From contig JBILHA010000002.1 in NCBI GenBank assembly GCA_044350705.1, forward strand, positions 30,542 to 94,541: a stretch of 64,000 bases of DNA. Reading direction: 5' to 3'. Source of the stretch: Candidatus Kapaibacterium sp. GTDB taxonomy: Bacteria; Patescibacteriota; Patescibacteriia; UBA9934. Both the position numbers and the translations under genes were made by a program. Numbering within the stretch: position 1 is the stretch's first letter; each line of letters opens with the position of its first letter. This document shows, in pieces, positions 12,543 to 57,737 of the stretch. The notes below the pieces were generated by a model. It did not search any database, was not told where the DNA came from, and saw only the letters and a list, made by a program, of their open reading frames with translations.

Positions 12543-12639
12543 ATGGGGATAGGGTACCTTGTTCCCCTTGACGTTCACAAGGGTTTTTGGTACTCTTTTC
12601 CACGTTTCCAGCGAATGCTGGCCGAATTCTTTACTTTCT

Positions 12640-12912: not shown

Positions 12913-12951
12913 AAAAATCGACTCTCATACGAGAGTCGATTTTTTTATTTC
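12913..12951. terminator. Bidirectional rho-independent terminator between convergent rpmA and rplI
   Basis: A7 tcgactctc atac gagagtcga T7: 9-bp perfect stem flanked by A and T runs. Confidence 0.7.
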
Positions 12952-12959
12952 CTCTTTCG

Positions 12960-15095: not shown

Positions 15096-15226
15096 ACGGA
15101 GCAGCGAAAGAAAAGCGGGTATTATATAGTGACTTAGGGAGATTTATATCACCGGCATGCAACGACCAAACCTCAAAACTCTCCCAAAATTTCCTGCGCC
15201 CCTCTCTCATCCATCCTCCACTATCT

Positions 15227-16195: not shown

Positions 16196-16203
16196 TTTCA
16201 CTT

Positions 16204-17298: not shown

Positions 17299-17304
17299 AC
17301 AAAA

Positions 17305-17329
17305 AAGACTCTTGAGCGAGTCTTTTTTG
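17305..17329. terminator. Bidirectional rho-independent terminator between GT2 (+) and rmlA (-)
   Basis: aaaaaagactc ttgagc gagtctttttt: 7-bp stem flanked by an A-run and a T-run. Confidence 0.7.
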
Positions 17330-17330
17330 T

Positions 17331-18194
17331 TTAGGCTTCCAACAGAGAGCGCAGATAGTTTCCGTATCCACTCTTCATGTACGGCTCCGCAAGCTTTTCG
17401 AGCTGCGCGTCGGTGATAAACCCTTCACGCCACGCAACTTCTTCAATACATCCCACTTTTAATCCGGTGCGCTGCTGAATGACTTCAACAAAGTTTGCCG
17501 CATCGTGCATCGCCTCAAATGTTCCCGTATCAAGCCATGCCGTGCCTCGGCCAAGAAGCGATACCTTCAGCTTTTCTTTTTTGCGATATTCGTCAAGAAC
17601 GCTCACGATTTCTATTTCTCCGCGATGACTCGGTTGAACCTGTTTTGCAATTGCTACCACCTCATTGTCGGTAAAGTACAAGCCTGCATTTGCGTAACTA
17701 CTCTTCGGCTTTTCTGGCTTCTCTTCAATGGAGAGAACGTTCATGTTCGCATCAAATTCGTATACTCCATAGCGCTGAGGGTCTTTTACCCGAGCTGCAA
17801 ATGCTACCGCGCCATCAACCTTGCGGTATTGTTTGAGCGTCTGTCCCATATCTGCTCCATGAAACAAGTTATCCCCCAAAATCATTCCCACCGAATCGTT
17901 TCCGATAAATTGTTCTCCAACGATATACGCATCAGCAAGACCCCGAGGCTCTTCTTGAACCGCATAGGAAAACGTACATCCAAGTCGCGATCCATCGCCA
18001 AGCAATTCTTCAAAGCGAGAAAGATCTTTTGGTGTAGAAATAATGAGTATTTCTCGAATGCCTGCAAGCATGAGGGTTGAGAGCGGATAGTAAATCATCG
18101 GCTTGTCGTAAACGGGAACAAGCTGCTTGATGACTCCTTGTGTAATAGGATACAGGCGGGTTCCTGAACCCCCTGCGAGAACAATTCCTTTCAT
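17331..18194 (-). CDS. rmlA: Glucose-1-phosphate thymidylyltransferase RmlA
   Basis: MKGIVLAGGSGTRLYPIT...; LGDNLF; C-terminal RmlA oligomerisation region; 287 aa. Confidence 0.95.
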   Translation of the reverse strand: MKGIVLAGGSGTRLYPITQGVIKQLVPVYDKPMIYYPLSTLMLAGIREILIISTPKDLSRFEELLGDGSRLGCTFSYAVQEEPRGLADAYIVGEQFIGNDSVGMILGDNLFHGADMGQTLKQYRKVDGAVAFAARVKDPQRYGVYEFDANMNVLSIEEKPEKPKSSYANAGLYFTDNEVVAIAKQVQPSHRGEIEIVSVLDEYRKKEKLKVSLLGRGTAWLDTGTFEAMHDAANFVEVIQQRTGLKVGCIEEVAWREGFITDAQLEKLAEPYMKSGYGNYLRSLLEA

Positions 18195-18199
18195 ATTCT

Positions 18200-19045
18200 T
18201 TATCCCTGGGAATTTTTCTCAGCAAACTTTTTCACCGTATCAAGAACCGCCTCTTGTACCGGTCGCATCGTGATTCCAAATTCTGACAAACGCTCTGACG
18301 CAAGGAAATTATTTGAACGCCCCTTTGTTGCAAGACCTTGCGCAACTAATTCTTCGTTTGAAATCCATTCACACGCGTGTGAAGGATCAACCATTTCTTT
18401 ATAAAGCCCGAGGATCTCTCGGTGTTTAATCGTTCCTGGATTTGTAACATGGAAGAATCCGGTCGCTTTCTTTTCCATGAGCTTGTAGAAGACATCGACC
18501 ATATCGTCTATCACGGTTATTGAATTCTCTACATCAATGACCTTCGGATATTTTGCGAGCTTCTCTAAAAGATTTCCCGGATTTGACGCGTGATCAATAG
18601 GCATGCGGATGCGTGCGATCCCTACATGAGGGAGCGTTGATAAGGCAAGATCTGCCGCCCATTTGGTGCGGCTATACGTTGCACTTGGATTTCCAAAATC
18701 ATTTTCTCGCCATGCTTGATCTGGATGCTGGGATGGGCCATAAAAAATGCACCCTGATCCCATATGAAGCATATAAACTCCTCTTTCTTGGCACGCGAAA
18801 GCAACCCAAAGCGGAACCATCACATTTCCTTCAATCGTTTCTCGCTGATGAGATTCACACCAGTCCACATTTGGTGTTCCCTTTACTCCAATGGTGCATA
18901 GTACCGCATCGGGCTTCACGCGATCGATCTCCTGCAGCGCAGATTCAACCGAAGTAATGCGCACCTCAGAAAGTACCGCTTCATCTCCCCATGCCGTCGC
19001 ACATCGATTTCCTAAATACCCTTTTCCAAAGATGAGAATTTTCAT
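18200..19045 (-). CDS. NAD(P)-dependent sugar-nucleotide reductase, dTDP-4-dehydrorhamnose reductase (RmlD)-like
   Basis: Start ATG 19045 (MKILIFGKGYLGNRCA, Rossmann GxGxxG); catalytic YxxxK as YSRTK; ~282 aa, typical RmlD size; lies between rmlA and rmlB. Confidence 0.55.
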   Translation of the reverse strand: MKILIFGKGYLGNRCATAWGDEAVLSEVRITSVESALQEIDRVKPDAVLCTIGVKGTPNVDWCESHQRETIEGNVMVPLWVAFACQERGVYMLHMGSGCIFYGPSQHPDQAWRENDFGNPSATYSRTKWAADLALSTLPHVGIARIRMPIDHASNPGNLLEKLAKYPKVIDVENSITVIDDMVDVFYKLMEKKATGFFHVTNPGTIKHREILGLYKEMVDPSHACEWISNEELVAQGLATKGRSNNFLASERLSEFGITMRPVQEAVLDTVKKFAEKNSQG

Positions 19046-19052
19046 ACAAGTA

Positions 19053-20063
19053 TTACACCTTTCCTTGATAATGTTCTTCGTAATACGACTGATACGCTCC
19101 GGAAGTACAACGCTCAACCCATTCCTTATGCTCTTCAAACCACTTCATCGTCCTTTCTAGCCCCTCCTCAAGAGAAACGAGGGGCTCCCATCCGAGCTTT
19201 TCTTTCGCGAATGCGTAATCGATCGCATAGCGACGATCATGGCCGGGACGATCAGTGACGTAGGCGATGAAAGACTCATCACGTCCCGTAAGTGCAAGAA
19301 GTTTTTTGGTAAGCTCGAGATTTGTTATCTCGGCATCTTTTCCTCCGAATAAATACGTCTCTCCCTTTTCTCCCATGCGAAGTGCCATGTCCACTCCCCT
19401 GCAATGATCTTCGACATAAATCCAGTCTCGTACCTGACTTCCATCGCCATACACAGGAACCTTTTTTCCTGCTTTTAAGTTACGAATAAAGAGTGGAATT
19501 AGCTTTTCTGGAAAGTGAAATGGACCGTAGTTGTTTGAGCAATTGGAAATTGTCGCAAAAAGATCGTGCGTATTTACATATGCGCGTACCAAATGATCAG
19601 AAGCGGCCTTTGTAGCACTGTATGGATTCTTCGGATCGTATGGCGTGCTCTTTGAAAATGGCGGGTCGTTTGGTGTGAGTGCACCAAATACTTCGTCGGT
19701 TGAGACGTGGTGGAATCTTTTTTTATGGCGTACCGCCGCATCGAGGAGCGTTTGCGTGCCGAGTACATTCGTTCGCACGAACGGACGATTGTCTTTAATG
19801 GAGCGATCAACGTGCGTTTCTGCGGCAAAGTGCACAATAGCATCGCATTCGGCAACGAGCGCATCCATGCGTGCCTCGTCACAAATATCTGCTTTTTCAA
19901 AGCGCACGCGCGAACTCTTTACCGCATCTTCCAAGTTCTCTAAATTTCCCGCGTACGTGAGTACATCAACTGCGATAATTTCATCTTCGGGATGGGCGCC
20001 TAGTACATAATGCACGTAATTCGCGCCAATAAATCCCGCCGCACCGGTTACAAGAATTTTCAT
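19053..20063 (-). CDS. rmlB: dTDP-glucose 4,6-dehydratase RmlB
   Basis: MKILVTGAAGFIGANYVHYVL...; extended SDR with YSATKAASD (YxxxK); HVSTDEVFG; 336 aa. Confidence 0.95.
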   Translation of the reverse strand: MKILVTGAAGFIGANYVHYVLGAHPEDEIIAVDVLTYAGNLENLEDAVKSSRVRFEKADICDEARMDALVAECDAIVHFAAETHVDRSIKDNRPFVRTNVLGTQTLLDAAVRHKKRFHHVSTDEVFGALTPNDPPFSKSTPYDPKNPYSATKAASDHLVRAYVNTHDLFATISNCSNNYGPFHFPEKLIPLFIRNLKAGKKVPVYGDGSQVRDWIYVEDHCRGVDMALRMGEKGETYLFGGKDAEITNLELTKKLLALTGRDESFIAYVTDRPGHDRRYAIDYAFAKEKLGWEPLVSLEEGLERTMKWFEEHKEWVERCTSGAYQSYYEEHYQGKV

Positions 20064-30489: not shown

Positions 30490-32541
30490 CTACCATGCCC
30501 CCATCCAGGTGCCTTGCGCAGGAACGATGTCTTTTATCTCTCCCATGAGCGTTCCATCCGGCGCCCACACCTGCACACTCCCCGCATGCCCATGCGGCGC
30601 AGTCACGATATCCCAATATCCATCTACATCAATATCTGCAACGGACACATTTGTTCCTCCCCCATCCGTTACGTCCGTAATGAAGAACTCTCTCCAGAGC
30701 GCACCAATGTAGTTAAAAATGCGCACATGGCCCGCGCCTCCCGTGAGGGGACCAATCACGATTTCATCACGCTCATCGCCATCGAAGTCTCCTGCGCTCA
30801 AGGTGAGTCCTGCATCCATATTCGGCGCATATGCCAAGAAGTCTACAAGACGAGATCCGTCCGCATTGTAAACAGCTACCCGCGGCTCTTTATTTTGCGC
30901 AGCAATAATGAGCTCTTTTTCCCAGTCATGATCAACATCTGCAACGGCAACCGTGAAACGCGTCCCTTCCGCAAATCCCTCCACCGTGAAACGCGAGAGT
31001 TCTTCCCCGTATTGATCAAAAATAACCACGTCATTACTTACCCCTGCCCCGACCGCAGTCACAATTTCTTCAATCCCGTCTCCCGTTACATCTCCAATCG
31101 CTGCCGAAACGCCTTGGCGAGCGTTCTCATCGTATGCGAAGAATTCTCGCATGAGCGCACCGGAAACGGAAAATATACGCACTTGCGGCCCCCCGCCCAC
31201 TCCGGGCGTTGCCACAATTTCTACCGCATTGTCGTCGTTGAGATCATCTACCGCAACCTGTACCCCGCCGGTGAATGCTTCACCAAATGCAAGGAACGAT
31301 GCATATGCAACCCCATCTGCGCGCCACACCTGTACTTCCGACTTTCCCCCTGCTCGTGCACCGAGCACCATGTATGAATCGCGGGCGCCTGCAAAATCAT
31401 TTACTTCATCATCAATACGTTCCTCGTCTTCTTCACGCTCTTCATCTCCTTCCTCCTGCATACCCACGAGCGTGGCCGCCACTTCTAAAGCGCGTGCGAT
31501 GTTAATACGCCCTGCTCCGATCGCCCCCACTCCTGACAGCGTATGCGCAGGATCAACGCTCAACTTCAGCGCAGAACGCACATTGTCTACCGATATTTCA
31601 GGGTAATAACTCACAATAAGCGCCGCTGCCCCTGCAACGATAGGGCTTGCCATGGACGTTCCAGACCACGGCCCGATATATAACTCCCCTGCTTCCGCGC
31701 GGCTTCCCCTCTCTGCATATCCTAGCCCGTAGATTCCCTCTCCAGGAGCGGAGATGTCTGCGCAGCTTGATCCGAAATTGGTAAATCCCGTCTCTTGGTC
31801 GTCCGCATCAGTCGCCGCAACACCAATGACCCAATCGGAAACCGATCCTTGCAAACAGGCAGGATAGACCGGTACTTCATTGAGATCACGTGCGTCATTT
31901 CCCAGCGCGGCAACAATCACTACCCCTTGTTGATAGGCATGTTGCACCGCGTTTCTAAGTGAGGCATGCGCTTCATTTCCGGCAAAGCTCAAATTAATAA
32001 CATCTGCGCCATTCCGCACCGCATACGCAATCGCCGCGGATGCATCAGATTCATTTCCACTTCCATGCTCATCGAGAATACGGAGCGGCATGATTTTTGC
32101 ATTCCACGCAATTCCCGCGTATCCCTCGTGATTATTTCCTACCGCCCCCACAATGCCTGCGACCACTGTTCCGTGCGACTGCGCCTCAGGATCACTCGAG
32201 TGCTCGAGCTCAGGTGCGGGAGTTGCATCATTATCAATGAAGTCCCACCCTTGCGTATCATCAATATATCCATTTCCATCATCGTCCTTTCCATTTCCTG
32301 CAATTTCCCCTGCGTTGCTCCAGAGGTTTCCTGCAAGATCGGGGTGATCCAAGGCAATGCCCGTATCGAGCACTGCTACAACGACCTCTTCGCTGCCGGT
32401 CGTGATCTCCCATGCCTCTGGTGCTGAAATGTGTGGAAGATACCAGAGATCCGCATACTTGGTGTCATTGGGCGTACGAGCGAGCGCCAGAGCAGGCGTT
32501 ACCATTCCCAGGAGGGCGATCAGTGCAAGGGGCTTATGCAT
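30490..32541 (-). CDS. Secreted subtilisin-like serine protease (S8) with C-terminal FG-GAP/VCBS-type repeats
   Basis: Signal peptide MHKPLALIALLGMVTPALALA; catalytic D (VAVLDTGI), H (HGTVVAGIV), S (GTSMASPIVAGAAAL); an acidic linker; C-terminal repeats with GD.DGDG..E (FG-GAP-like). Confidence 0.85.
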   Translation of the reverse strand: MHKPLALIALLGMVTPALALARTPNDTKYADLWYLPHISAPEAWEITTGSEEVVVAVLDTGIALDHPDLAGNLWSNAGEIAGNGKDDDGNGYIDDTQGWDFIDNDATPAPELEHSSDPEAQSHGTVVAGIVGAVGNNHEGYAGIAWNAKIMPLRILDEHGSGNESDASAAIAYAVRNGADVINLSFAGNEAHASLRNAVQHAYQQGVVIVAALGNDARDLNEVPVYPACLQGSVSDWVIGVAATDADDQETGFTNFGSSCADISAPGEGIYGLGYAERGSRAEAGELYIGPWSGTSMASPIVAGAAALIVSYYPEISVDNVRSALKLSVDPAHTLSGVGAIGAGRINIARALEVAATLVGMQEEGDEEREEDEERIDDEVNDFAGARDSYMVLGARAGGKSEVQVWRADGVAYASFLAFGEAFTGGVQVAVDDLNDDNAVEIVATPGVGGGPQVRIFSVSGALMREFFAYDENARQGVSAAIGDVTGDGIEEIVTAVGAGVSNDVVIFDQYGEELSRFTVEGFAEGTRFTVAVADVDHDWEKELIIAAQNKEPRVAVYNADGSRLVDFLAYAPNMDAGLTLSAGDFDGDERDEIVIGPLTGGAGHVRIFNYIGALWREFFITDVTDGGGTNVSVADIDVDGYWDIVTAPHGHAGSVQVWAPDGTLMGEIKDIVPAQGTWMGAW

Positions 32542-32637: not shown

Positions 32638-33396
32638 TTATTCGGTAGGATTTTTCAGTTCTCGTCCTTCAGCATTATCTCGTGCGCCAGATGCTGTCCG
32701 ACACGCGCTCAGCACTTCTCTTTTTTCATCTTCCACTTGCTGACGAATTTCACCGGTCTCCGCAATCGTTTCTGCAACCTCGAAATGATCTTTTGCCTTT
32801 GTGCAGTCTCCCGCTTCCCCGTACCAACGCCCTAAGCCAAGCATGTTAAACATTTTTCGCCCAACGGTCTCAACCGAATCTTCATAGAGCTCCTTGATCT
32901 TTTCTTTTTCTTCAGGGAACTGCTCCTTCAGAATATTTATTGCATCACGGTAGGTTTGTTCCATTGGCGTCAGTTCTACGGCGCGCAGATATGCATTTTT
33001 TGCGTCCTCCCAATCTTGCATAAGACGGAGCGTATATCCGTACGAGCTCCAGAATCCGCTATTGAGCGAATTTTCTTCGATCGCTTTTTCCAACGATTCT
33101 CGCGCAAGAATGAGATCACCAAGCAACAGTGCATCATTTGCAATCGATGCGTAGAGATTTTCATCCACATCTTCCCCTGCATCTTCCGTTGCTTGTATGG
33201 ATGCTTGTGCCGTTGCAATACGCTGCTCTGCGAGCGCGCGCACGCCTTCATCGGATTGCACCTCAATGCGAGTTACCAATCCCTTATAGGGATCTCGGTT
33301 TACCCAGGCATATGCCCCCAACGCAAGCGCTCCAATCAGCGCGATTGCGACCACTCCCCCGATCCATTGCTCACGAGAAATATTCCTGAAATTCAT
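32638..33396 (-). CDS. TPR-repeat protein with N-terminal signal anchor
   Basis: Start ATG 33396 (MNFRNISREQWIGGVVAIALIGALALGAYAWV); body shows TPR-like helical repeats (WEDAKNAYLRAVEL, YGEAGDCTKAKDHFEVAE). The track ORF extends further upstream without support. Confidence 0.55.
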   Translation of the reverse strand: MNFRNISREQWIGGVVAIALIGALALGAYAWVNRDPYKGLVTRIEVQSDEGVRALAEQRIATAQASIQATEDAGEDVDENLYASIANDALLLGDLILARESLEKAIEENSLNSGFWSSYGYTLRLMQDWEDAKNAYLRAVELTPMEQTYRDAINILKEQFPEEKEKIKELYEDSVETVGRKMFNMLGLGRWYGEAGDCTKAKDHFEVAETIAETGEIRQQVEDEKREVLSACRTASGARDNAEGRELKNPTE

Positions 33397-33521: not shown

Positions 33522-36500
33522 TTAGAACTGTACAGACGAAGCACCACTGAAGTCGGTGATGTCGACGAGGTAAGCACCCCACCAGTCATCAGTCGTTCCA
33601 GTAGCTCCCGCTACGCCGTCATCCTTCCAGAGGAAAGAGGTTGGGAGGCGGAAGATGTCATCGGACGTACCGATGCCGGTGTTCGCCATAACGTTGGTAC
33701 CAAGGTATCCACGAACAACCGTAAGGTCATTGGTGCTAATGTTGGTTACAAGCATGCGTTCATCGGAAGCGGAAACGCCGTCGTCAGCAACGTCGAAGAT
33801 GATGATATCTCCAACGCTGAATGCAGCTCCGGAATCTACGGTGATTACCGTATCGGTTACTGCAATCGAGGTTTCAGCAGAAGCATCAGCAACTGCGTCG
33901 TAGTTCGTTGAAGCAGGATCGCTTACAATTTCGAACAATACGCTGTCGTCGGTAGATGCACCTGCTGCACTCATGTAGAGCGAGTAGGTCTTTGTGGTTC
34001 CTGCAGCAACTACTTCATCGGTTGGGAATGCTACACCAACAAATGCGATATCAGCTGCGGTACCGTCACATGCTACTACTTCGCTGGAAGCTACCTTGTG
34101 CAAGCTCCAGTTTGCAGAAGCCGTATCAAGAGCGGTCGAAAGGTTCGAGCGATCGAAAATATCGAAATCTGCACCAGTCTTTACATAGGTTCCTGGAGAC
34201 GCGGTATCACACGTGTTCCAATCAGCACCTCCTACATCGGAAGCGCTCATGCGGAACATGATGCGATCGATGACTACATCTTCACCTGCGGTTGCGGAAA
34301 CGTTGAAGCGAAGAACTTCAGGGCGTCCACCTGCAACACCCGTAGAAGGAGAAGAGGAAGAGCGAGCTACAGATGGGTAGGTTTCCTTCACGACGAAGGT
34401 AGGTACGCCATCGGTAGATTCAAGATCGTCACCAAGGTCAGCAACGGAAGCACCGTTTACTTCAGAACCCGAGCCAGAGCCCGTAGCCTTGAAGTAGGTG
34501 TTTCCTGCTCCGGAGGTGTAAAGACCCATACGTACCTTTTCGTTTGAGGTAGCAGAACCACCAGAAACGCGGTCAGTCGTAGGAACGTTTACGTATACCT
34601 CAACGTCGGTAGGTTCATCTACTGCTACTGGGATCGAAAGACCCGAGAAGCGAGCGATGTTTCCAGAGAGCGCTGCGGTAGGAGCAGTTCCGGTCATACC
34701 ATCCCATGCAAGAGAAACAACGGAAATGTTGTTTGCGTATGCAGCGGAGTTGGAAGAGCCCGTATCATCTTCAGCTTGTTCTTCAGAGAAGGACAAGGTG
34801 TTGAGGACGAAATCTTCGTTGGTAGCCGTAAAGCGGTAGGTTGCTACATGGCTGTTGGACGTGCCCGTGCGGAGGAAATCCGCATCTGGCATGTCTGCTG
34901 CAGCGGATGCTGCGAGAGAACCACTTGCTGCGATGGTCACAACGCGATCCACCGTTGTTGCGCTGCCGTTTACTGCGTCACCCGTTGCCGTTACATCGTC
35001 ACCATCTTCGTCTTCGGCGATCACATCAGAAGATGCATCAACGATATCGAATGCGAAATGACGGTTGGAGGTTTCGGATGGGTTTGCAAGGTTACACTTT
35101 ACCGTAAGGGTTGCAACTTCGGAAGCGTCGAGCATCCAGTCCATACTATCAAACGTGATCGTCTGACCGTTGGAAGAAGGAGACTCTGGGCCACCTACGA
35201 TTTCAGAACCGTGGTAAAGCGAGCAAGATTCAATGAAGTCATTGACGTCTGCGTTCGTTTCACCTCCGATCGTGAAGGTTGCATCACCATCGTCATCTCC
35301 GTATGCGGAGAGCACGATTTCACTTACCGTGATATCAGATGCGTCACCTGCCGTGAAGGTGAATCCTACAGCAGCATGGCTGTCGGTTCCCTGAACGGTC
35401 GTGGTATCAACTGGCGTAGAAGCCAAGCTGATTGCAAGAGAAGCTGCACGTGCGGTTTGGTTGAAACCTACAACGCCAGATGCTGGAACGATGTCGGTTA
35501 CCGTGTCACCGTTTGCATCCTCAATGTCGAGACCGGAAACGGTTACCTCGGCTAAGAAGATGGTTCCGGAACCAACCAAATCATCTACGTCTGCAACAAC
35601 TGCGAGATTGAGGGTTTCACCCGCTTCAATCGTGAAGTCATCGGTGAACGTAAGCGTTTCGTCAGCGTCATCGGTTCCCGTAAGTTCGAGAGATGCGCCA
35701 ACGGTGCGGCCACTGTCGGTATCTACCACCTTGATATCAGTCAAGGAAGGTACGGATCCCGTCGTGAAAAGACCATCAGTGTCATCATCTCCGCCGTTCT
35801 CTACTGCATCACGAGCGTCGCCATCAGCGTCGTCGTCAGAGTAAAGCTTTACCGCCATCGACTTCACATCTACCGTCTGTGCAGACGTGATGGAGAATTC
35901 GAGAAGCGTCTGGTCCTGTGCGTCGATCTGAATGTCGCCTACTGCAGGGCCGTTGAATGCAAGCGTTACATCGCCGCCTTGAACGACACTGTAGGAACAC
36001 TGCACGGACGACGTACATGCACTGTCATCGTATTCCTCTATGTTTGTTGCCATGCCGAATCCGTAGTCTCCACCGATCGCGAGAATGTCTACCGCGTTTT
36101 CAGCGTACACACGGATAACGTCGGACGACTTTCCACCAATATCAGCGGAAAGGGTGAAGACGTTATTATCACCTTCTTCAATGAAGAAAGGCTCGTCTGC
36201 AAGGCTACATACAACCTGGTCACGAGAGGTGTTTTCACACTCTGCGAGCCAGTCGGAACCATCCCAGAGGTTGAAATCGGAGTGATCTCCTGCATCCTCA
36301 ACTTCGAGGGTGATGAGCTCTACGTCAGCATCTTCAGTACCTGCGGACAATCGGAACTTCGCAATTTCTGCGTCTTGTTCACCGATTGCAGGGTCCTGGA
36401 TGCTTCCTGCAGCCTCAATCGTCAACGTTCCAGAGCTTGCTCCACCTACGGTGAATTCATCGCCTTCGATTGGGAAGCGACCAGAAACGTCACCCGATGC

Positions 36501-37610
36501 GGTTACCATATCTGCAGATTCGAGCTCGAATCCGAAGGTGGAAGCTGCATCTGCGAGGGTAGCAACCGTTGCCTTTACCGTAAGGGTTACGGAATCGCGA
36601 GCACCAAGCTCAACATCAAGAGAGTTGAAAGTTACTTCGCGGGTAGAAGAGTTGATCGAGCGAGCATCGGTCAAGCGAGTATCACCTTCGTAAAGGTACA
36701 CTGCGGAGAGCGTGCTTGCTGCGCCTGCTCCGGTAAGGGAGAGGGTAACGCCGTCAAGAACTGCTTCTTCGGAACCTGCTTCAACGTCGAAAGCGAATAC
36801 TTCAACGCCGTTTGCGCCCTTCGTAACCGTAGAACCAGCTGGCATCGAAGATGCCGCAGAGATTTCAACGTCTCCCATTGCGGAAGAGTCGTCATCGCTG
36901 GTTTCCGTCTGAGCAGCGTCTACAAGGGAGGTCATCTCGGAAGAGATTTCATCACCCATGGTCAAATCGCTGTCATCGATGTTTGCACCGTCCAAAACGA
37001 ACTTCGACATGAAGTTGTTTGCGGACATACCTGCGGAGGTAACCTCGCGCATTTCACCATCCCAAGAAAGGTAGGTGGTTCCTCCCATTTCATAGAGCGC
37101 ACCTTCGTATGCAGCTGCTTCCATGAGAGAAGTTCCCTCAGTGTAATCAGCGAAGAATACGTCTGGTACGTCTACGATACGCTTGTTCCAATCGGAACCA
37201 GCGAGATCTTCTGCGATGTCTGCGGTTTCAATCCAGTGAATCATGCCGTTGCGAGCAACTGCATATACATCAGCGATGGACTGCACCTTGATCCACCAAG
37301 AACCTGGGCGCATTACTACGTTACCACCGAGGGTGATATCGGAGAGTGCACTGTCAGAAATGGTAGATACGTCATTGAAGTTTGAGTACCAAGTGAAGTA
37401 CGTTGCTTCGTTAGGGAAAACGTAGCGCATACCGTCGTAACCGTAGTAGTAGACGGTAGAGAGCGACGTTCCCTTAATGAGATCGCCAGCAGAAGCTGCG
37501 CTCACCGATGCAGGGGAAACGAGAAGGCCTGCACCTACAGAGAAAGCGATGGTCGCTGCAGCTACTGCTGCAGAGAAAGCACGCTTACCTGTTTCAAGAA
37601 CATGTTGCAT
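33522..37610 (-). CDS. Giant acidic secreted protein (1362 aa), putative surface-layer/adhesin-like protein
   Basis: Start ATG 37610 (MQHVLETGKRAFSAAVAAATIAFSVGAGLLVSPASVSAASA, signal peptide); extremely D/E/T/S/G/A/V-rich; repeated beta-sandwich-like modules; ends ..SSVQF; good terminator downstream. Confidence 0.8.
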   Translation of the reverse strand: MQHVLETGKRAFSAAVAAATIAFSVGAGLLVSPASVSAASAGDLIKGTSLSTVYYYGYDGMRYVFPNEATYFTWYSNFNDVSTISDSALSDITLGGNVVMRPGSWWIKVQSIADVYAVARNGMIHWIETADIAEDLAGSDWNKRIVDVPDVFFADYTEGTSLMEAAAYEGALYEMGGTTYLSWDGEMREVTSAGMSANNFMSKFVLDGANIDDSDLTMGDEISSEMTSLVDAAQTETSDDDSSAMGDVEISAASSMPAGSTVTKGANGVEVFAFDVEAGSEEAVLDGVTLSLTGAGAASTLSAVYLYEGDTRLTDARSINSSTREVTFNSLDVELGARDSVTLTVKATVATLADAASTFGFELESADMVTASGDVSGRFPIEGDEFTVGGASSGTLTIEAAGSIQDPAIGEQDAEIAKFRLSAGTEDADVELITLEVEDAGDHSDFNLWDGSDWLAECENTSRDQVVCSLADEPFFIEEGDNNVFTLSADIGGKSSDVIRVYAENAVDILAIGGDYGFGMATNIEEYDDSACTSSVQCSYSVVQGGDVTLAFNGPAVGDIQIDAQDQTLLEFSITSAQTVDVKSMAVKLYSDDDADGDARDAVENGGDDDTDGLFTTGSVPSLTDIKVVDTDSGRTVGASLELTGTDDADETLTFTDDFTIEAGETLNLAVVADVDDLVGSGTIFLAEVTVSGLDIEDANGDTVTDIVPASGVVGFNQTARAASLAISLASTPVDTTTVQGTDSHAAVGFTFTAGDASDITVSEIVLSAYGDDDGDATFTIGGETNADVNDFIESCSLYHGSEIVGGPESPSSNGQTITFDSMDWMLDASEVATLTVKCNLANPSETSNRHFAFDIVDASSDVIAEDEDGDDVTATGDAVNGSATTVDRVVTIAASGSLAASAAADMPDADFLRTGTSNSHVATYRFTATNEDFVLNTLSFSEEQAEDDTGSSNSAAYANNISVVSLAWDGMTGTAPTAALSGNIARFSGLSIPVAVDEPTDVEVYVNVPTTDRVSGGSATSNEKVRMGLYTSGAGNTYFKATGSGSGSEVNGASVADLGDDLESTDGVPTFVVKETYPSVARSSSSPSTGVAGGRPEVLRFNVSATAGEDVVIDRIMFRMSASDVGGADWNTCDTASPGTYVKTGADFDIFDRSNLSTALDTASANWSLHKVASSEVVACDGTAADIAFVGVAFPTDEVVAAGTTKTYSLYMSAAGASTDDSVLFEIVSDPASTNYDAVADASAETSIAVTDTVITVDSGAAFSVGDIIIFDVADDGVSASDERMLVTNISTNDLTVVRGYLGTNVMANTGIGTSDDIFRLPTSFLWKDDGVAGATGTTDDWWGAYLVDITDFSGASSVQF

Positions 37611-37782
37611 AAGCAAAATAAATGTGACTCTTTTTACCCCAAGAGCCGGGGGTGATGTGAAGAAGGACAAATCCGGCCCTGCGGCCTCGACCTTGCTTGG
37701 TTTTGTCAGGGATGCGAACGCCATCCCTTCGGAATCCACCACGCTTGCGCATGATGCCTTCTGAAGGAAGGGCGAGGTCCGC

Positions 37783-38931
37783 CTAGGGCGTCTCCTCTCC
37801 CGTTTCCTGCGTATCGTCGTCTGTTTTTTCTTTCGCTTCGTTTTCCATGAATGCCTGCGTAATGGATTCTTCGATGAACGTCAGCTCTTTCTCCATGCCC
37901 GCGAGCGCAGCATCCATTTCTTTTAAGGTATCAAGTGCGGATCGCACTCCTCCGGCTGCGAATCCATCCATAATGGAAGGGAGTTTCGCATCCATTTCTT
38001 CCATGGCTTTTTTCATATTCGCAAATGTTGATTTTTCAGGGAGTGTAACACCCGCCTGTGCAAGGATCTCTTTTTGCTCCACCGCGATGCCTTCGATGGT
38101 CGTGATGCGGTGCAGCACCAGTGCACGACGGGTTTCTATTTCTCCAAAAAGATTTCGGAATACTTTTCCTACTTCAACGGTCGAACGGTCGCTTGGGGCG
38201 GTTTCGTGCGCAATAATCGTTACATCGGTTGCAACATCTGCAATTGATTGCGTGGTTTGCGTGACCTGTTCTGCCACCTGGCGTGTATTTACTCCCGCTT
38301 CTTCTGTGTGCTGATCTTCGCTTACTCCTTCCTGTCCACTGCTTGCGGTGGTAATTTCTTCCGCATTTCGCGTGAGCAGGGCAACCTGGTCAAGTACTGA
38401 AGCTGCCGTGGAGAGTGCCTGGGTTTGATCTTGCTCTTGGAGCATTTGCAGATCCGTCGTCGCAGAGGCGATTTCTCGCTGGTACGCCGTAACCGTTTCA
38501 GGGATGTACTGTGCTCTGTTTGGCTCTTCTTGCACGGCGCGTTGGAGTGCCGCAACCTCCTCAAGGCGACGACCTGCGAATTCGGTATGCAGAACCGCTC
38601 GACGATCAAGGGAAGCCATGCGGATTTGCGCACGTTCCGCAATGATCTTTACGTTATAAAGCGTATCTCCTGGCAAACTGTACTGGGCTGCAGATGTGGT
38701 CACCCACCCTCCCGCTACAAATACCAAAGATGCCGCAGTCACTGCAACCGGCTTATAGATCAGGGATTGCAAAAATCCCACGGTGTAAGCCGTAGATGAA
38801 GGAGCGGATTCAAATACCGCCTCGGGAATTGCACTGAGCAACCGCGCCCGAGCCTGTGCATGTACCTCAGCATCAACCGCACCTGCCTGAGGCAGGTTTT
38901 TTGCTTTTCGCAATGCGGGAGGCAAAAACAT
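37783..38931 (-). CDS. Putative anti-sigma factor (single-pass membrane protein with coiled-coil extracytoplasmic domain)
   Basis: Start ATG 38931 lies 7 nt after the ECF sigma stop; one TM (YKPVAVTAASLVFVAGGWVTT); C-terminal 300 aa Q/E/A-rich helical; position and topology fit ECF anti-sigma factors. No sequence family recognised. Confidence 0.45.
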   Translation of the reverse strand: MFLPPALRKAKNLPQAGAVDAEVHAQARARLLSAIPEAVFESAPSSTAYTVGFLQSLIYKPVAVTAASLVFVAGGWVTTSAAQYSLPGDTLYNVKIIAERAQIRMASLDRRAVLHTEFAGRRLEEVAALQRAVQEEPNRAQYIPETVTAYQREIASATTDLQMLQEQDQTQALSTAASVLDQVALLTRNAEEITTASSGQEGVSEDQHTEEAGVNTRQVAEQVTQTTQSIADVATDVTIIAHETAPSDRSTVEVGKVFRNLFGEIETRRALVLHRITTIEGIAVEQKEILAQAGVTLPEKSTFANMKKAMEEMDAKLPSIMDGFAAGGVRSALDTLKEMDAALAGMEKELTFIEESITQAFMENEAKEKTDDDTQETGEETP

Positions 38932-38938: not shown

Positions 38939-39472
38939 TTATGAAGGTAATATTTTTTTAAGCGCAGCCTTTGCACGATGCAAGAGGACGCGAATGTTAT
39001 TTGGCGTTTTGGTAAGTGCAGCAGCAATCTCTTCTATTTCCATCTCGCTGAGATAGCGCATGACGAGCACTTCTTTGTACTCCTCTTTCATGCCTTGCAG
39101 CACTTCGATCACCTGAGCACCTTCGATCCGAAGATCGGTCGCTTGTTCGATATCTGTACCCGCTTGGAGCGAAGCTTCGAGCGCTTCCGTCAATGCTTCA
39201 GGCGTCTTTTTGCGGTAAAAGTCCGCAACAAGATTTCTCGCAATGCGAAAGAGCAAGGCGCCTACATCTTCTACCATGCTCGATGTCATATACTCCCATG
39301 CACGCAAGAACGTTTCGTGAAGTAAATCTTCCGCATCCTCTTTACGAGGAAGTTTAAAGAAGAGAAACCTGCGAATACGGTTTGCGTACAGGTCGTAGAG
39401 CTCTCCATATGCTTGCCCGTCACGAGCAGTGAATACTCGCTTCGCAAGATATTTCGTGCGATATCCTGACAT
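38939..39472 (-). CDS. RNA polymerase sigma-70 factor, ECF subfamily
   Basis: Start ATG 39472 (MSGYRTKY...); region 2 (YGELYDLYANRIRRFLF...DAEDLLHETFLRAWE) and region 4 HTH (YKEVLVMRYLSEMEIEEIAAALTKTPNNIRVLLHRAKAALKK). Confidence 0.85.
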   Translation of the reverse strand: MSGYRTKYLAKRVFTARDGQAYGELYDLYANRIRRFLFFKLPRKEDAEDLLHETFLRAWEYMTSSMVEDVGALLFRIARNLVADFYRKKTPEALTEALEASLQAGTDIEQATDLRIEGAQVIEVLQGMKEEYKEVLVMRYLSEMEIEEIAAALTKTPNNIRVLLHRAKAALKKILPS

Positions 39473-39593
39473 GTAAGTAGACGTACGAGGGGGAGAATTA
39501 TTACAGTTCGGATTTTCTCCTCGCAAAAATCCTATACAATGTACCCCATACGAAGCCCCCAGATTACGGAAATTAGCCAAAAAAAGCAAGCAT

Positions 39594-44101: not shown

Positions 44102-45664
44102 CTAGTAGGCGTACGCCCAGACGTCATTGGCGTCTGCGCACGCGACGTATCCGGTGCAGGACGCGGGATTTTCCACGATCCGGCTTCCGGCAGCCACGCC
44201 GACGCCGTCGGTGAGGCTGCCACAGCCATACTGCACGGTCGCGAAAGATGAGGAACGATTCTCAACGGCGATATAGCCGCCGCCGCCCACCGAGATCGTT
44301 GATGTGCAGAGCGGGAGCTCGATCCAGGGATCCGGCGTACCGGTGTCGCCCGTGTCGCCCGCCTCGCAGTCCGCCTCGTCGGCGGTGCCGTCGCAGTCGT
44401 TGTCGACCGTATCGGCGCACACCTCGAGCTCGCCGGGGTTCACCGCCGCGACACCGTCATCGCAGTCGGTGTTGTCCTCGACGTAGCCCTCGATCCCGAT
44501 GCCTTCACACATGGGGGTACCGGGGTCCGACTCGTCGCCGTAGCCGTCGCCGTCGTTGTCCACGTAGACGTTCACGAAGTCGGCTGCGTCGGTGTCGGTG
44601 ACACCGTTGCAGTCGTTGTCGGTTCCGTCGCCGCAGACCTCGGTTGCGCCGGGGTTGACGAGCGCGTCGGTGTCGTTGCACTCCTCGCACGCGCCGTACC
44701 CGTCGCCGTCGTTGTCGTCGGCGCCGACCAACCCGTCGCAATTCATGTCGTCCGTGGCGCTGCAGTCCTCCATGGCGCCGGGGTTGACGAGCGCGTCGGT
44801 GTCGTCGCAGTCACCGTCGTGCGCGACGTAGCCGGTGGGCGTGCTGCAGGCCGAGACGGTCGTGGCGGGATCGCCGTAACCGTCGCCGTCGGTGTCGGCG
44901 TACCAGGTCTGCTTGTCGACGGCATCGCCGTCGGTGTCGCCGTTGCAGTCGTTGTCGATCCCGTCGCAGACCTCGGTGGCGTCGGGGTTGATGAGCATGT
45001 CGGAGTCGTTGCACTCCTCGCAGCCCGCAAAGCCGTCGCCGTCGCCGTCCTCGTTGCTCGTGAAGCCGTCGCAGTTCATGTCCTGCTCGTCTTCACAGGT
45101 TTCGGGGGCGCCGGGGTAGATGGTCGCGTCGGCATCGTTGCAGTCGGTGTAGTCGGGCACATAGCCGACCGGCTGTTCGCAGGCGGCGGTGGCCCAGGTG
45201 GGCTCCCCGTAGCCGTCGCCGTCGGTGTCGGCGTACCAGGTCTGCTTGTCGACGGCATCGCCGTCGGTGTCGCCGTTGCAGTCGTTGTCGATCCCGTCGC
45301 AGACCTCGGTGTTGCCGGGGTAGGCGCTCGAATCGGCATCATCGCAGTCCTCGCACTCGGCCACGCCGTCCTCGTCGTCGTCCACGCCGGTGATGAAACC
45401 GTCGCAGTCGATGTCGACGAGGTCGGTGCACTCCTCGATGGCATCCGGGTTGATCTCCGAGTTCCCGTCGTCGCAGTCGTCACAGGCCGAGAAGCCGTCA
45501 CCGTCGGCGTCGATCTCCTCGCACGGATTTCCGGTCTCGCCGGAGTCGTCCGTGACGATGCCGGTGTCATCCGGCATCGGCTCAAGCTCGCCCTTGATGT
45601 GCAGCGGGGGGAAACACGCCGCGAACAACACGAGGGCCATCAGGCCCATCTCGTTCGTCTTCAT
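44102..45664 (-). CDS. Secreted Cys-rich repeat protein with 'putative metal-binding motif' (MopE-like, Myxococcota-type) repeats
   Basis: Start ATG 45664 (MKTNEMGLMALVLFAACF, signal) preceded by GGAGG; ~9 repeats of C..C.DC(D/N)D.D..(I/V)NPGA.E.CDG.DNDC(N/D)G; strikingly GC-rich, GC3-dominated codons; contains ~120-bp near-identical internal direct repeats. Confidence 0.8.
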   Translation of the reverse strand: MKTNEMGLMALVLFAACFPPLHIKGELEPMPDDTGIVTDDSGETGNPCEEIDADGDGFSACDDCDDGNSEINPDAIEECTDLVDIDCDGFITGVDDDEDGVAECEDCDDADSSAYPGNTEVCDGIDNDCNGDTDGDAVDKQTWYADTDGDGYGEPTWATAACEQPVGYVPDYTDCNDADATIYPGAPETCEDEQDMNCDGFTSNEDGDGDGFAGCEECNDSDMLINPDATEVCDGIDNDCNGDTDGDAVDKQTWYADTDGDGYGDPATTVSACSTPTGYVAHDGDCDDTDALVNPGAMEDCSATDDMNCDGLVGADDNDGDGYGACEECNDTDALVNPGATEVCGDGTDNDCNGVTDTDAADFVNVYVDNDGDGYGDESDPGTPMCEGIGIEGYVEDNTDCDDGVAAVNPGELEVCADTVDNDCDGTADEADCEAGDTGDTGTPDPWIELPLCTSTISVGGGGYIAVENRSSSFATVQYGCGSLTDGVGVAAGSRIVENPASCTGYVACADANDVWAYAY

Positions 45665-45895
45665 TTCTTTTGCCTCCTGGGATTGAACCCGTAGCAAGGT
45701 TAGCAAAAAAATGCGAAAAAGTAAAGGAAAAAGGTGCCTGCAGAGCACTTCTTTTCCTCCAAAAAGTTTTTAAAACGAACAACCGCCCCTACAGTCCCGA
45801 AGGACCGCAGAGGCGGAAGATTCACCGGCGCGAGGCGCCGGCTACAGTAGACACGTGACCCCGTCTACTAGGGGGGGTGGCGCTGACGAGGCGCC

Positions 45896-47038
45896 CTACT
45901 CGACCTGGCAGACCGGCTCGTCGGCGGTGGAGCGCTTGTTGCACTCCCCCGCCGGTGGGGTGTCGTCCGTGGTGGAGTAGTTGAGGGTGGCCGTGTCCCC
46001 TCCGATGACGATCGAGCTGTAGTGCTCGGACCCGCCGGTGGCGATGTAGGAGCCATCGCTGCACTGCCCGAAGACCCACAGGAGGTCGCCGGACTGAGCG
46101 TTGATGCTCCCGGACAGGGTGTTGCTCCCGCCGGTGGCAATGTAGTCGGGGCTGGAGAGCCCCGGCCAGTTGCCGACCCAGTCGCTCTGGTTGAAGATCC
46201 AGAGCTCCCAGGTCTCGCCGGAGTCGGAGCACCACGAGCTGTCCTTCGTCACCTCGACGGTGAGGCTGCCCGAGCCGCTGTCGCTGCCCGAGTGCGTGCC
46301 GGTGTCCGTGTCGGAGGAGGTGTCCTCGTCCACGTCGGAGGTGCCGTCGTTGTCCGAGTCGGGGTTCTCGTCCGGGTCCAGGCCGAAGCCCTGGCAGCCG
46401 GGGGCGAAGACCCCCTCCTCATCCTTCATCAGGTAGAGGCCCAACCGGTTCCCGTCGAGGGGGTTGGGGCAGACCGCGGAGTCGTGGCCGCTCAGAGCGG
46501 TCAATTCCCCCCACTCGTCCAGCCCCCCGTCGGTGCTCAGATCGCACTCGCCGGGGGAGAAGGTCCGGGTGTTGCCGAAGAAGATGTCCACGGCGTCGGG
46601 GAAGAAGAACCGCACCTTCTCGGACCGGACGCCGGACGGCCAGTCGGACTGGTCGTCGTAGCGCTCGATCGGCAGGTTCTCGGAGCACCAGTCGTACTCA
46701 CCCTCGCTTCCCCCGAGGCCGTAGCCCACGAGGAAGGTGTTGGTGAGGCTGGCCACGAGCCCCTGGTCGAGGTAGACGAAGTCGCCGTAGGGCACCACCT
46801 TGTCGGCGGTGTCGATGATGCCGTCGTTGTCGAGGTCGGAGGTCGAGGAGCTGGGACCGGTGGTGCCCGAGTCGTCGCCGGAGTCGTCACCCCCGGCGCC
46901 GGTGTCGTCGCTGGGGTTGCTGGTGTCGTCGCCGTTGTTGTTGGCGTCGACGTTGCCATCGCTCTTCTTCTTGAACTCTCCGCCGCAAGCGACGAGGGAG
47001 GACAGGCCGAGGAGGGCGAGGAGGGAGAAGGCGTTCAT
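45896..47038 (-). CDS. Hypothetical secreted lipoprotein (lipobox LVAC), high-GC
   Basis: MNAFSLLALLGLSSLVACGG: signal peptidase II lipobox; D/S/G/T-rich acidic low-complexity N-terminal region then a Cys-containing domain; SD GGAG 8 nt upstream. Confidence 0.6.
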   Translation of the reverse strand: MNAFSLLALLGLSSLVACGGEFKKKSDGNVDANNNGDDTSNPSDDTGAGGDDSGDDSGTTGPSSSTSDLDNDGIIDTADKVVPYGDFVYLDQGLVASLTNTFLVGYGLGGSEGEYDWCSENLPIERYDDQSDWPSGVRSEKVRFFFPDAVDIFFGNTRTFSPGECDLSTDGGLDEWGELTALSGHDSAVCPNPLDGNRLGLYLMKDEEGVFAPGCQGFGLDPDENPDSDNDGTSDVDEDTSSDTDTGTHSGSDSGSGSLTVEVTKDSSWCSDSGETWELWIFNQSDWVGNWPGLSSPDYIATGGSNTLSGSINAQSGDLLWVFGQCSDGSYIATGGSEHYSSIVIGGDTATLNYSTTDDTPPAGECNKRSTADEPVCQVE

Positions 47039-53936: not shown

Positions 53937-53964
53937 AACTTCCTACATCTGTAGGAAGTTTTTT
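53937..53964. terminator. Bidirectional hairpin terminator shared by smpB (+) and tmRNA (-)
   Basis: aaaaaacttcctaca tc tgtaggaagtttttt: 9-11-bp stem with A/T runs on both sides; abuts the tmRNA CCA end. Confidence 0.75.
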
Positions 53965-54378
53965 GGTGGACCTGACGGGAATTGAACCCGTATCCGAGGA
54001 ACGTTCGCCAAAACTCTTTCTTCCAAGCTCATTCGCGTTTAGAGGGTTTACGTCTTTTTCGGTCAAGAAACGCGACGAACAACGAAACCGACGATGACAC
54101 GGCAAGGGTCCCTTATGCAGTGCGTCATCCCTGCAAAGGCAAGCGAGAAGGGTTATGACATGACTACTTTACGCACTCGCAGCGTAAAGGTCATGGGTGG
54201 CGGCGTTATTACGCGGCGACCGGAACAAAGGAAGGCGTGCGGAGCGCAGAAGCGACGACAGCCTTCACTTTTGAAAATACGTTTGCATGTACTTTCTGAA
54301 GCGTGTGATAACGCGGGACGCTTCGCCCGCGGCTTGAGAGGGATTGGGAATGATCTTCGTCGAAAGCCTAACAGGCCC
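53964..54378 (-). ncRNA. ssrA: tmRNA (SsrA transfer-messenger RNA), ~415 nt
   Basis: 3' end on the minus strand reads GGGUUCAAUUCCCGUCAGGUCCACCA (T-arm, acceptor, CCA). The 5' end GGGCCUGUUAGGCUUUCGACGAAG pairs with it over 7 bp including a G3-U70 wobble. Conserved UUCGACG box. In-frame tag ORF from resume codon GCA: GCA AAC GUA ... GCC GCG UAA UAA gives ANVFSKVKAVVASALRTPSFVPVAA with a double stop. Convergent with smpB. Confidence 0.85.
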
Positions 54379-57660: not shown

Positions 57661-57737
57661 GGGGCGGTAGTTCAATTGGTTAGAGCACTGCCCTGTCACG
57701 GCAGAAGTTGCGGGTTCGAGTCCCGTCCGCCCCGCCA
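57661..57737 (+). tRNA. tRNA-Asp (anticodon GTC), CCA encoded
   Basis: GGGGCGG ta GTTC aattggtta GAGC a CTGCC ctGTCac GGCAG aagtt GCGGG ttcgagt CCCGT CCGCCCC g CCA: full cloverleaf, anticodon loop cuGUCac. Confidence 0.9.

Follow-up and report, generated by a model that had tools for sequence, protein, structure and literature searches.

The stretch of DNA studied here, called the window below, comprises 64,000 nt of contig JBILHA010000002.1 (positions 30,542 to 94,541 of the forward strand, assembly GCA_044350705.1), deposited as Candidatus Kapaibacterium sp. and placed by GTDB in the Patescibacteriota (Patescibacteriia; UBA9934). On its reverse strand lies a gene for a large acidic secreted protein, which had been noticed in a preliminary description of the window made from the letters alone, and directly before this gene stands a 5' leader with several hairpins. 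An extracytoplasmic function (ECF) sigma factor gene and a putative anti-sigma factor gene precede the leader, and genes for a membrane TPR protein and a secreted S8 subtilase follow (Table 1). The evidence presented below points to a structural protein of the cell surface, for which an S-layer-type coat is the favoured role, and to a conserved RNA element in its leader.

Table 1. Features at the locus in window positions. Syntenic counts refer to the best 80 of 269 loci found in one genome per GTDB species; aa, amino acids; pLDDT, predicted local distance difference test; pTM, predicted template modelling score.
Feature	Positions	Strand	Basis
Acidic secreted protein, coding sequence, 1362 aa	33522..37610 (stop 33522-33524, ATG 37610-37608)	(-)	open reading frame list; homolog N-termini
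Sec-type signal peptide, residues 1-41	37488..37610	(-)	read from sequence; sole hydrophobic window
Aromatic-rich alpha/beta N-terminal module, residues 42-238, about three loose internal repeats	36897..37487	(-)	conservation; AlphaFold2 pLDDT about 85
Six cohesin/Ig-like beta-sandwich modules, M1-M6	33918..36866	(-)	profile self-comparison; AlphaFold2
Module limits in residues: M1 249-394, M2 395-546, M3 547-722 (acidic loop about 594-620), M4 723-891, M5 892-1079, M6 1080-1231			
C-terminal domain, residues 1232-1362	33525..33917	(-)	invariant columns; AlphaFold2, C-terminal half pTM 0.81
Intrinsic terminator, 11-bp stem (8 G-C pairs), U-rich tail, 36 nt past the stop codon	33459..33485	(-)	sequence
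Non-coding 5' leader, 172 nt, from the anti-sigma stop codon (37783-37785) to the ATG	37611..37782	(-)	intergenic span
Hairpin P0, base CCUU (37767-37764)/AAGG (37729-37726) around a stem of variable sequence	37726..37767	(-)	RNAalifold
Hairpin H1, agggatg-gcgttcg-catccct	37708..37728	(-)	recurs in most loci
Core RNA element	37666..37707	(-)	covariance model; covariation
Parts of the core element: P1 5' arm, unpaired AAGCAAGGUCGA bulge, P1 3' arm	37707-37699, 37698-37687, 37674-37666		
P2 hairpin, GGCC-GCAG-GGCC	37686-37675	(-)	
Pyrimidine tract CCUUCUUCAC, then hairpin H3 (GGCUCU...AGAGUC, alternatively CCCC...GGGG) before the start codon	37626..37665	(-)	
Putative anti-sigma factor, 382 aa, upstream neighbour	37783..38931	(-)	weak Pfam match to DUF5667, 23 bits, below cutoff; syntenic 71/80
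ECF sigma factor, 177 aa, ATG 39472	38939..39505	(-)	family matches; syntenic 72/80
ECF-type promoter of the sigma gene, TGTAAT-N16-CGTC	39505-39480	(-)	motif conserved across loci
Membrane TPR protein, downstream	32638-33396	(-)	syntenic 54/80
Secreted S8 subtilase with FG-GAP repeats, downstream	30490-32541	(-)	syntenic 62/80

The reading frame at 33522..37742 on the reverse strand is open from a GTG and would give 1406 aa, and the public call P0001 (1400 aa) starts at the ATG at 37724 within leader hairpin H1, 38 codons early. The ATG at 37610 (MQHVLETGKR...) corresponds to the N-terminus shared by about 60 homologs, and in 64 related loci an in-frame stop codon stands a median of 13 codons upstream of it. 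Judged by these homolog N-termini and upstream stops, P0001 has a miscalled start, and the product has 1362 residues as originally described. Over-extended gene calls of the same kind occur in several relatives. The possibility that the leader is itself coding sequence was ruled out by the in-frame stops found just 5' of the ATG in most loci.

The signal peptide recognised in the preliminary description can be read directly from the sequence. It consists of the n-region MQHVLETGKR with its Lys-Arg pair, the h-region AFSAAVAAATIAFSVGAGLLV with a hydrophobic core of 21 residues, and the c-region SPASVSA/ASA/GD, in which cleavage is predicted after VSA38 or ASA41; it is strongly conserved among the homologs. 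Residues 11-39 form the only hydrophobic segment, no other transmembrane segment being present in the protein, and no lipobox cysteine was found in the signal peptide region. The acidic, Lys/Arg-poor composition was likewise confirmed (isoelectric point (pI) 4.05; D+E 16.4%; K+R 3.9%; A+S+D+T+V+G 62.8%). Nevertheless, the low pI is not special to this protein, as the exported proteins of the window all have pI values of 4.0-4.6 and the cytoplasmic ones 6-9.5. The exported set includes S8, S41 and HtrA-like proteases, a lipoprotein and a Cys-rich repeat protein, all with few Lys and Arg residues, and the extreme acidity is therefore a trait of the exoproteome of the organism. Among the eight cysteines of the protein, C796 and C839 are invariant across the family. 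The sorting and wall-binding signals that had been suggested for checking (SLH, CWB2, the type IX secretion system (T9SS) C-terminal domain and LPXTG) are all absent from the protein: neither an LPXTG-like motif nor a C-terminal hydrophobic or transmembrane segment is present, and the whole protein has no Pfam or NCBIfam match to SLH (PF00395), CWB2 (PF04122), the T9SS C-terminal domain or PEP-CTERM at E ≤ 0.1.

Neither the whole protein nor its single domains matched any entry in Pfam, NCBIfam or PHROGs, and searches against the sequences of solved structures (PDB) with the single sequence or with a 61-sequence profile returned 0 matches at E ≤ 10. No match to a cytoplasmic family was thus obtained in Pfam, NCBIfam or the PDB sequences for a product that had been described as secreted. 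The homologs form 350 clusters, every one of which is labelled hypothetical and assigned to 'Patescibacteria group' or 'Candidatus Uhrbacteria'. The best 120 of these clusters share 42-100% identity with the query and nearly all cover 94-100% of it, apart from a few contig-truncated fragments that cover 60-70%; the length within this set is mostly 1330-1490 aa. The scan of one genome per GTDB species gave 269 relatives, the best 80 of which are mostly full-length copies with 32-66% identity. Many relatives carry the title 'uncultured Gammaproteobacteria', which stems from a bulk third-party submission; since the gene order on these contigs is that of Uhrbacteria, the titles were treated as mislabels. 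From this distribution, the family is conserved across the uncultured Candidatus Uhrbacteria (Patescibacteria, also known as the Candidate Phyla Radiation, CPR). Some Uhrbacteria possess a second paralog of about 940 aa (L043 8534-11350, L048 10920-13730 and L079 7370-10228), located a few kb downstream with the TPR gene between it and the main gene. This paralog has the shared N-terminal module followed by acidic beta-sandwich modules and is without the RNA leader element.

The literature searched contained no account of the protein family, of DUF5667 or of the RNA motif. For the family, the terminal module and the motif alike, no description turned up in the libraries and papers searched, whereas a surface-layer-type protein with a structured leader is of a known kind. 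S-layer proteins of Patescibacteria detected by homology to known ones have been reported in a preprint (10.1101/2024.05.28.596244); unlike that set, the present family has no homology to known S-layer proteins.

The Tyr/Trp-rich N-terminal domain mentioned in the preliminary description does exist, although it spans about 200 residues (42-238) rather than about 100. It is the best-conserved part of the protein, with a mean identity of 65% compared with 43-53% elsewhere. With the profile of this module, matches were obtained at the C-terminal end of the S8 subtilase next to the gene in about 20 other loci of Uhrbacteria (E 1e-18 to 1e-30), the part present in the subtilases of the L012-L061 range being the first two-thirds of the module. 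The paralogs of about 940 aa, in three loci, matched it as well (E 1e-57 to 1e-62). When 1.84 billion cluster representatives at 50% identity were searched with phmmer, 4084 related proteins were revealed at E ≤ 1e-3, including 419 at E ≤ 1e-30. The proteins bearing the module are 216-3512 aa long, and it stands either directly after the signal peptide or at the extreme C-terminus. Those sampled carry Big_1, Big_5, Big_7, CARDB, fn3, PEGA or DUF3048 domains, and in none of them did Pfam recognise the module. Searched alone, the module gave no Pfam match at E ≤ 10 and no PHROG match, and fold searches, in which it was included within the half-protein models, returned nothing informative for it. 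Its recurrence at either end of otherwise different proteins identifies it, as far as sequence comparison can tell, as a reusable terminal module, which is probably a cell-wall or surface anchor.

For structure prediction, AlphaFold2 was run on two overlapping halves of the protein, residues 40-735 (pLDDT 88.0, pTM 0.64) and residues 700-1362 (pLDDT 88.5, pTM 0.81). The models are confident and contain beta-sandwich modules and terminal domains only. The repeated modules seen earlier were recovered by comparison of the family profile with itself (hhalign), which resolved six beta-sandwich modules that are homologous to one another, each about 145-190 aa long (E 1e-19 to 1e-5); these are diverged and not near-identical tandem copies. 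The C-terminal domain contains the invariant motif E..MLVT....LTVVRGYLGT in the family alignment, and no sorting signal or family match was found for it. Fold searches with the models yielded only generic beta-sandwiches as structural neighbours, with 5-21% identity: cohesins, PrgB Ig-like, integrin leg domains, AgI/II C123 and Calx-beta, and further the CLIPPER adhesin domain, Bap, an RTX-like adhesin, phage Ig-like domains and tailspike N-terminal domains. There was no enzyme fold among these neighbours. The lack of a family match together with structural neighbours that are solely beta-sandwiches argues for a structural protein rather than an enzyme and, according to the models, the product is an exported, non-enzymatic, modular structural protein.

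Codon usage was compared by means of the effective number of codons (ENC). The gene has an ENC of 36.2, while 12 of 13 comparison genes of the window fall at 47-56 at the same GC content at third codon positions (GC3, about 0.49); the exception is a MopE-like gene with GC3 0.90 and ENC 32.9. The same bias was found throughout the family, the ENC being below that of the concatenated neighbours in all 68 loci examined (medians 39 and 50) over a GC3 span of 0.22-0.88, and below that of the lowest-ENC neighbour in 64 of them. In 42 of 49 loci, an equivalent of the terminator in Table 1 follows the stop codon at a distance of 22-90 nt. The codon bias and a strong terminator belonging to the gene itself suggest that its expression is very high. 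A long structured 5' untranslated region, a long mRNA half-life and biased codon usage are found together in S-layer genes (PMC3666127).

The upstream region, which had been described as about 170 nt with several hairpins, conforms to that description. The intergenic length has a median of 171 nt in 70 loci, and the leader of the window folds better than its shuffles (z = -2.9; 2 of 200 shuffles fold equally well). In hairpin P0, each of six inner pairs shows 3-12 double-sided changes (RNAalifold, 25 leaders). The hairpin agggatg/catccct, which had been quoted as an example, is H1; in related loci it recurs with a conserved GGGA/UCCC base, a bulge and compensating changes in the inner stem, as judged by eye without scoring. 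The 5' arm of H1 overlaps the 3' base of P0 by 3 nt, and therefore both hairpins cannot form fully together.

The core of the leader is a helix (P1) enclosing a AAAGGUCGAG bulge and a GCC-GCAN-GGC hairpin (P2). In an alignment made by eye, 72 of 74 loci showed a near-invariant AAAGGTCGAG followed by the GCC-GCAN-GGC hairpin at 55-90 nt upstream of the ATG, with flanks that vary between loci yet stay complementary. The seed was an ungapped, motif-anchored alignment of 21 loci, picked with some bias because P1 looked clean in them; 88.9% of its cells are paired, compared with 34-43% in slid controls, and 14 of 15 pairs show double-sided changes. The covariance model R1, built from this seed, gave one match per locus in 1.1 Mb of sequence (78 loci), on the strand of the gene and just upstream of it (in every case 55-90 nt from the ATG), and the match in the window lies at 37713..37660 with 29.7 bits and E 8.6e-5; no second copies of the element were found by the model in the window or in the 78 loci. 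Among 63 sequences aligned to the model, all 15 pairs show compensatory changes and 89.1% of the cells are paired (32-43% when slid), and among the 42 non-seed sequences P1 is paired in 83.7% (35-41% when slid), percentages that are somewhat inflated because the seeds were picked for a clean P1 and the larger alignment was fitted to the model. Nevertheless, the margin over the slid controls is large despite the fitted alignment. Moreover, P2 and P0 were recovered by RNAalifold on a plain MAFFT alignment of 25 leaders that was not structure-fitted. P2 is conserved in sequence as well as in pairing. The single-sequence minimum-free-energy fold was dropped as a model of the leader, as it fails to reproduce the P1 and P2 helices supported by covariation.

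In one clade (L018, L042, L054 and L066), an extra hairpin (e.g., ggagagcccgctctc) is inserted between the 5' arm of P1 and the AAAGGUCGAG bulge; because of this insertion the covariance model matches these loci only locally, and P1 is visible by eye. In the closest relatives of the window, GGCTCT/AGAGCC, GGTTCG/CGAACC and GCTC/GAGC replace one another in H3. A metagenome scan for the exact 21-nt motif returned 36 matches, 22 of which lie 62-93 nt upstream of homologs and two of which are cut by contig ends. The remaining 12 were taken as chance because they are without P1, lie in unrelated, mostly higher-GC DNA and come to approximately the number expected. No Rfam family matched the leader at gathering score, nor was any found at E ≤ 10 when 37560-37860 was searched alone. 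The leader thus combines covariation with a fixed position and orientation before one gene family, the hallmarks of a structured cis-regulatory leader. On this comparative evidence, it is a cis-acting RNA with a previously undescribed conserved element, and the earlier suggestion of a regulatory leader or processing site gains support from this lineage-wide, covarying element absent from Rfam.

The surroundings of the gene are conserved as well. In nearly all loci with enough flanking sequence, the order is a Wzy_C-domain gene, two glycosyltransferase genes (GT4, GT4), the ECF sigma factor, the anti-sigma factor, the gene under study, the TPR protein and the S8 protease, followed by an epimerase, GT2, DUF2304, GT4 and GT4. 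The C-terminal domain of the S8 subtilase varies by genome, with FG-GAP repeats in the window and the N-terminal-type module in about 20 other Uhrbacteria. The wider window contains rmlA/B/D, MurG, FtsW, MraY, a PEGA protein and type IV pilus genes, and by this gene content the region is one of envelope biogenesis. A particularly dense stretch of envelope genes occupies 964-20063, where PilD and PilM are followed by MurG, FtsW, MraY, an S41 protease, a PEGA-domain protein and rmlA/D/B.

The promoter of the sigma gene follows the consensus TGTAAY-N16-17-CG(T/A)C, which is conserved across loci (L003-L078), and in the window this pattern occurs at two sites only, 39505-39480 and 39731-39705. The mRNA of the sigma/anti-sigma pair is probably leaderless or nearly so, as the promoter ends about 7 nt before the sigma ATG, and it is probably autoregulated. 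The pattern scan of the window found no copy of the motif in the leader, and the gene for the 1362-aa protein lacks the cognate promoter expected of a member of the ECF sigma regulon. The sequence AAAGGTCGAG was also considered as an ECF -10 element and ruled out, there being no conserved -35 and the upstream arm covarying with the downstream arm. A well-conserved palindrome, TTTGTCTACnCTAGnGTAGACAAA, was observed about 90-140 nt upstream of the ECF sigma gene in other loci (L012, L014, L019 and L024), in the gap that separates this gene from a small, divergently oriented HTH_17 gene; it resembles an operator at which the HTH_17 regulator would act and is not evident in the copy in the window.

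Taken together, we favour the interpretation that the protein is the major cell-surface coat protein, of S-layer type, of the Candidatus Uhrbacteria cell, with a probability of roughly 0.55; such a coat protein would probably be glycosylated. The initial idea of an S-layer or giant adhesin component fits the absence of a cytoplasmic family, the beta-sandwich make-up and the envelope and glycosylation cluster. An S-layer-type protein is favoured over a rare adhesin because of the lineage-wide conservation at a single locus, the roughly constant length, the N-terminal module that is conserved best of all parts, the codon bias and the terminator. In the mechanism that we infer, the protein would be exported via Sec and the signal peptide then removed, the aromatic N-terminal module would hold it on the cell wall or a wall polymer, and the six beta-sandwich modules with the C-terminal domain would form the outward-facing, self-associating part, whose very acidic surface may bridge subunits by Ca2+. 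The nearby glycosyltransferases, the Wzy_C-domain protein and the rhamnose genes may provide a glycan, which would decorate either the protein or its wall ligand. A role in processing or trimming the coat protein may fall to the adjacent S8 protease, which bears the same anchor module in many relatives. The data show the architecture of the protein, its conservation, the conserved order of the genes, the codon bias, the structure of the RNA and its exclusive link to this gene; anchoring, lattice formation, glycosylation, processing by the protease and the role of the RNA are inferred.

Several observations weigh against a coat protein. The protein has no known S-layer anchoring domain (SLH, CWB2), and no S-layer protein appeared among the structural neighbours of the AlphaFold2 models. 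Fibrillar adhesins are just as typically built from strings of beta-sandwich domains, and attachment to hosts occurs in CPR bacteria. Furthermore, the paralogs of about 940 aa in some genomes mean that the protein need not be the sole coat component.

The alternative that survives best, and which we nonetheless consider unlikely, is a fibrillar adhesin of modest copy number, in which a beta-sandwich stalk would carry one terminal domain that binds a host or particle and another that keeps the fibre attached to the cell. Stalk domains of adhesins (PrgB Ig-like, AgI/II C123, Bap, CLIPPER and RTX-like) are found among the structural neighbours, and the acidity and the likeness to Calx-beta suggest stalks rigidified by Ca2+. 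Type IV pilus genes lie within the same window, and CPR bacteria are generally inferred to be episymbionts (PMC13059738). However, adhesins usually vary in repeat number and are patchy between species, whereas here six modules and a length of about 1340-1490 aa are maintained over a range of 32-75% identity. The codon bias in 68 of 68 loci, the compact prediction for the C-terminal half (pTM 0.81), which does not resemble a rod, and the lack of a sortase, T9SS or autotransporter signal also argue against an adhesin. Cellulosomal anchoring scaffoldins have an SLH-cohesin architecture. The present layout, in which cohesin-like repeats come after an anchor module, is a parallel to it, but a wall-anchored scaffold of this type docking secreted proteins is highly improbable: Pfam cohesin (PF00963) matched not even a single module at E ≤ 10, no dockerin-like partner turned up (no search aimed at dockerins having been made), and strong codon bias would not be expected of a scaffoldin where the genome encodes few secreted enzymes.

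With regard to the leader, it is proposed that the mRNA starts with, or is processed to, the 172-nt multi-hairpin leader and ends at the strong terminator. The hairpins near the 5' end of the leader would probably stabilise the message, and a specific protein factor that sets translation or processing probably binds at the invariant AAAGGUCGAG bulge and its GCC-GCAN-GGC hairpin. Specific recognition beyond stabilisation is indicated by the conservation, with covariation, of a sequence-invariant loop and hairpin. Since no separate promoter was found in the leader, the gene may be read through from the upstream ECF sigma/anti-sigma operon, and subsequent cleavage of such a transcript is plausible. 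The inflated pairing percentages count against this account to some extent, as do the failure to find a sigma-70 consensus or ECF promoter in the leader and the absence of a clear Shine-Dalgarno sequence near the ATG in the window's own clade.

A riboswitch, in which a metabolite or ion bound in the AAAGGUCGAG internal loop would toggle P0 and H1 and thereby control translation or read-through, would account for invariant unpaired nucleotides between covarying helices, as in riboswitch aptamers, and for the partial mutual exclusion of the P0 3' base (AAGG) and the H1 5' arm through their 3-nt overlap. In the clade of the window, CCCC/GGGG and GGCUCU/AGAGUC are moreover alternative pairings beside the start codon. 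We regard this explanation as rather improbable, as the element is small (about 20 conserved nucleotides) and a single gene family for a structural protein lies downstream, while the usual targets of riboswitches are transport or metabolic genes, several of them at a time. Across clades, neither a terminator nor a clear helix sequestering the Shine-Dalgarno sequence is conserved, and the sequence of P2 is conserved besides its pairing, a better fit to recognition by a protein. It is still less probable that the motif acts as DNA, as an operator or promoter, e.g., for the adjacent ECF sigma factor: the sigma/anti-sigma pair stands directly upstream in nearly every locus, GGTCGA bears a loose likeness to the -10 element (CGTC/CGAC) in the promoter of the sigma gene itself and P2 is a short palindrome, but no TGTAAY -35 is present at the right distance, the sequence upstream of the motif varies, the orientation of the element and its distance to the ATG are fixed, and the arms of P1 are wholly different between loci yet complementary, with G-U pairs that are meaningful only in RNA. 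Message stabilisation or processing combined with a protein-binding site is the most likely of these explanations.

A further-reaching proposal, which can be put forward only tentatively, is that the N-terminal module represents a CPR-wide anchor family, the counterpart of SLH and CWB2, and at the same time that the AAAGGUCGAG-bulge element represents a new class of cis-regulatory RNA. If true, the anchor family would mark the 1362-aa protein as the long-sought S-layer protein of a CPR lineage, and the RNA would couple coat synthesis to the status of the envelope. The coupling would run either through feedback by unexported or unassembled protein or through a factor under the adjacent ECF/anti-sigma pair.

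Elsewhere in the window, two adjacent genes at 44102-47038 on the reverse strand have a GC content of about 65%, compared with about 50% elsewhere, and extremely acidic secreted products; at 44102-45664 (-), GC3 is 0.90 versus 0.49 elsewhere. One of the pair has Cys-rich DxDxDG repeats and a match to MopE-like PF11617 in the public annotation. The pair was possibly acquired horizontally. A transfer-messenger RNA gene (53964-54378 (-), 98 bits) and a tRNA-Asp gene (57661-57737 (+)) were also located.

CPR bacteria (Patescibacteria) constitute a large share of bacterial diversity, and how they build their envelope is still unclear (PMC5220378). The candidate coat protein offers a concrete target for cryo-electron tomography, proteomics and antibody labelling of uncultured cells. 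The terminal module has more than 4000 relatives among cluster representatives at 50% identity and lacks any database annotation of its own, and if it is a wall anchor, the surface proteome would become predictable from sequence. The leader element, a new RNA motif with good support, belongs to one gene family only, and it makes post-transcriptional control tractable to study in organisms in which very few regulators are known.

Four known systems invite comparison. With fibrillar adhesins (PrgB, AgI/II, Bap and CLIPPER-domain proteins), the protein shares the fold class of beta-sandwiches and an acidic, probably Ca2+-binding character, but it differs in the fixed number of modules, the conserved length, the extreme codon bias, the predicted compact C-terminal half and the lack of any sortase, type I or type V secretion system signal. 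In Clostridioides difficile, SlpA and the Cwp84 protease share a three-repeat CWB2 wall-binding module. The slpA locus resembles the present one in that a surface protein and a neighbouring secreted protease, here the S8 subtilase in about 20 loci, share a module, which in the present family is a probable wall anchor. Nevertheless, the present module is unrelated to CWB2 (no Pfam match), the protease is a subtilase and not a cysteine protease, the S8 protease of the window itself carries FG-GAP repeats instead of the shared module, and cleavage of the candidate coat protein is presumed.

In Geobacillus, rml genes and the gene for a Wzy_C-type oligosaccharyltransferase belong to the slg clusters. 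The SbsC and SgsE proteins of Geobacillus stearothermophilus, whose wall-binding domain is N-terminal, have in common with the present protein a 'beads on a string' build, Sec secretion, acidity, a structural gene beside glycosylation genes and signs of high expression. In contrast, neither sequence nor profile searches linked the present protein to a solved S-layer protein, its aromatic N-terminal module of alpha/beta type is different, its lattice is presumed, and its host is a CPR bacterium with an uncharacterised envelope (PMC5220378). For the leader, the closest parallel is slpA of Lactobacillus acidophilus and L. crispatus, a surface-protein gene with very high expression, which likewise combines a long, stably structured leader with biased codons; there this arrangement gives mRNA half-lives of about 15 min (PMC3666127). 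The leader described here differs from that of slpA in possessing a sequence-invariant loop and hairpin that are kept, with covariation, throughout a whole lineage, and in belonging to a gene that follows an ECF sigma/anti-sigma pair.

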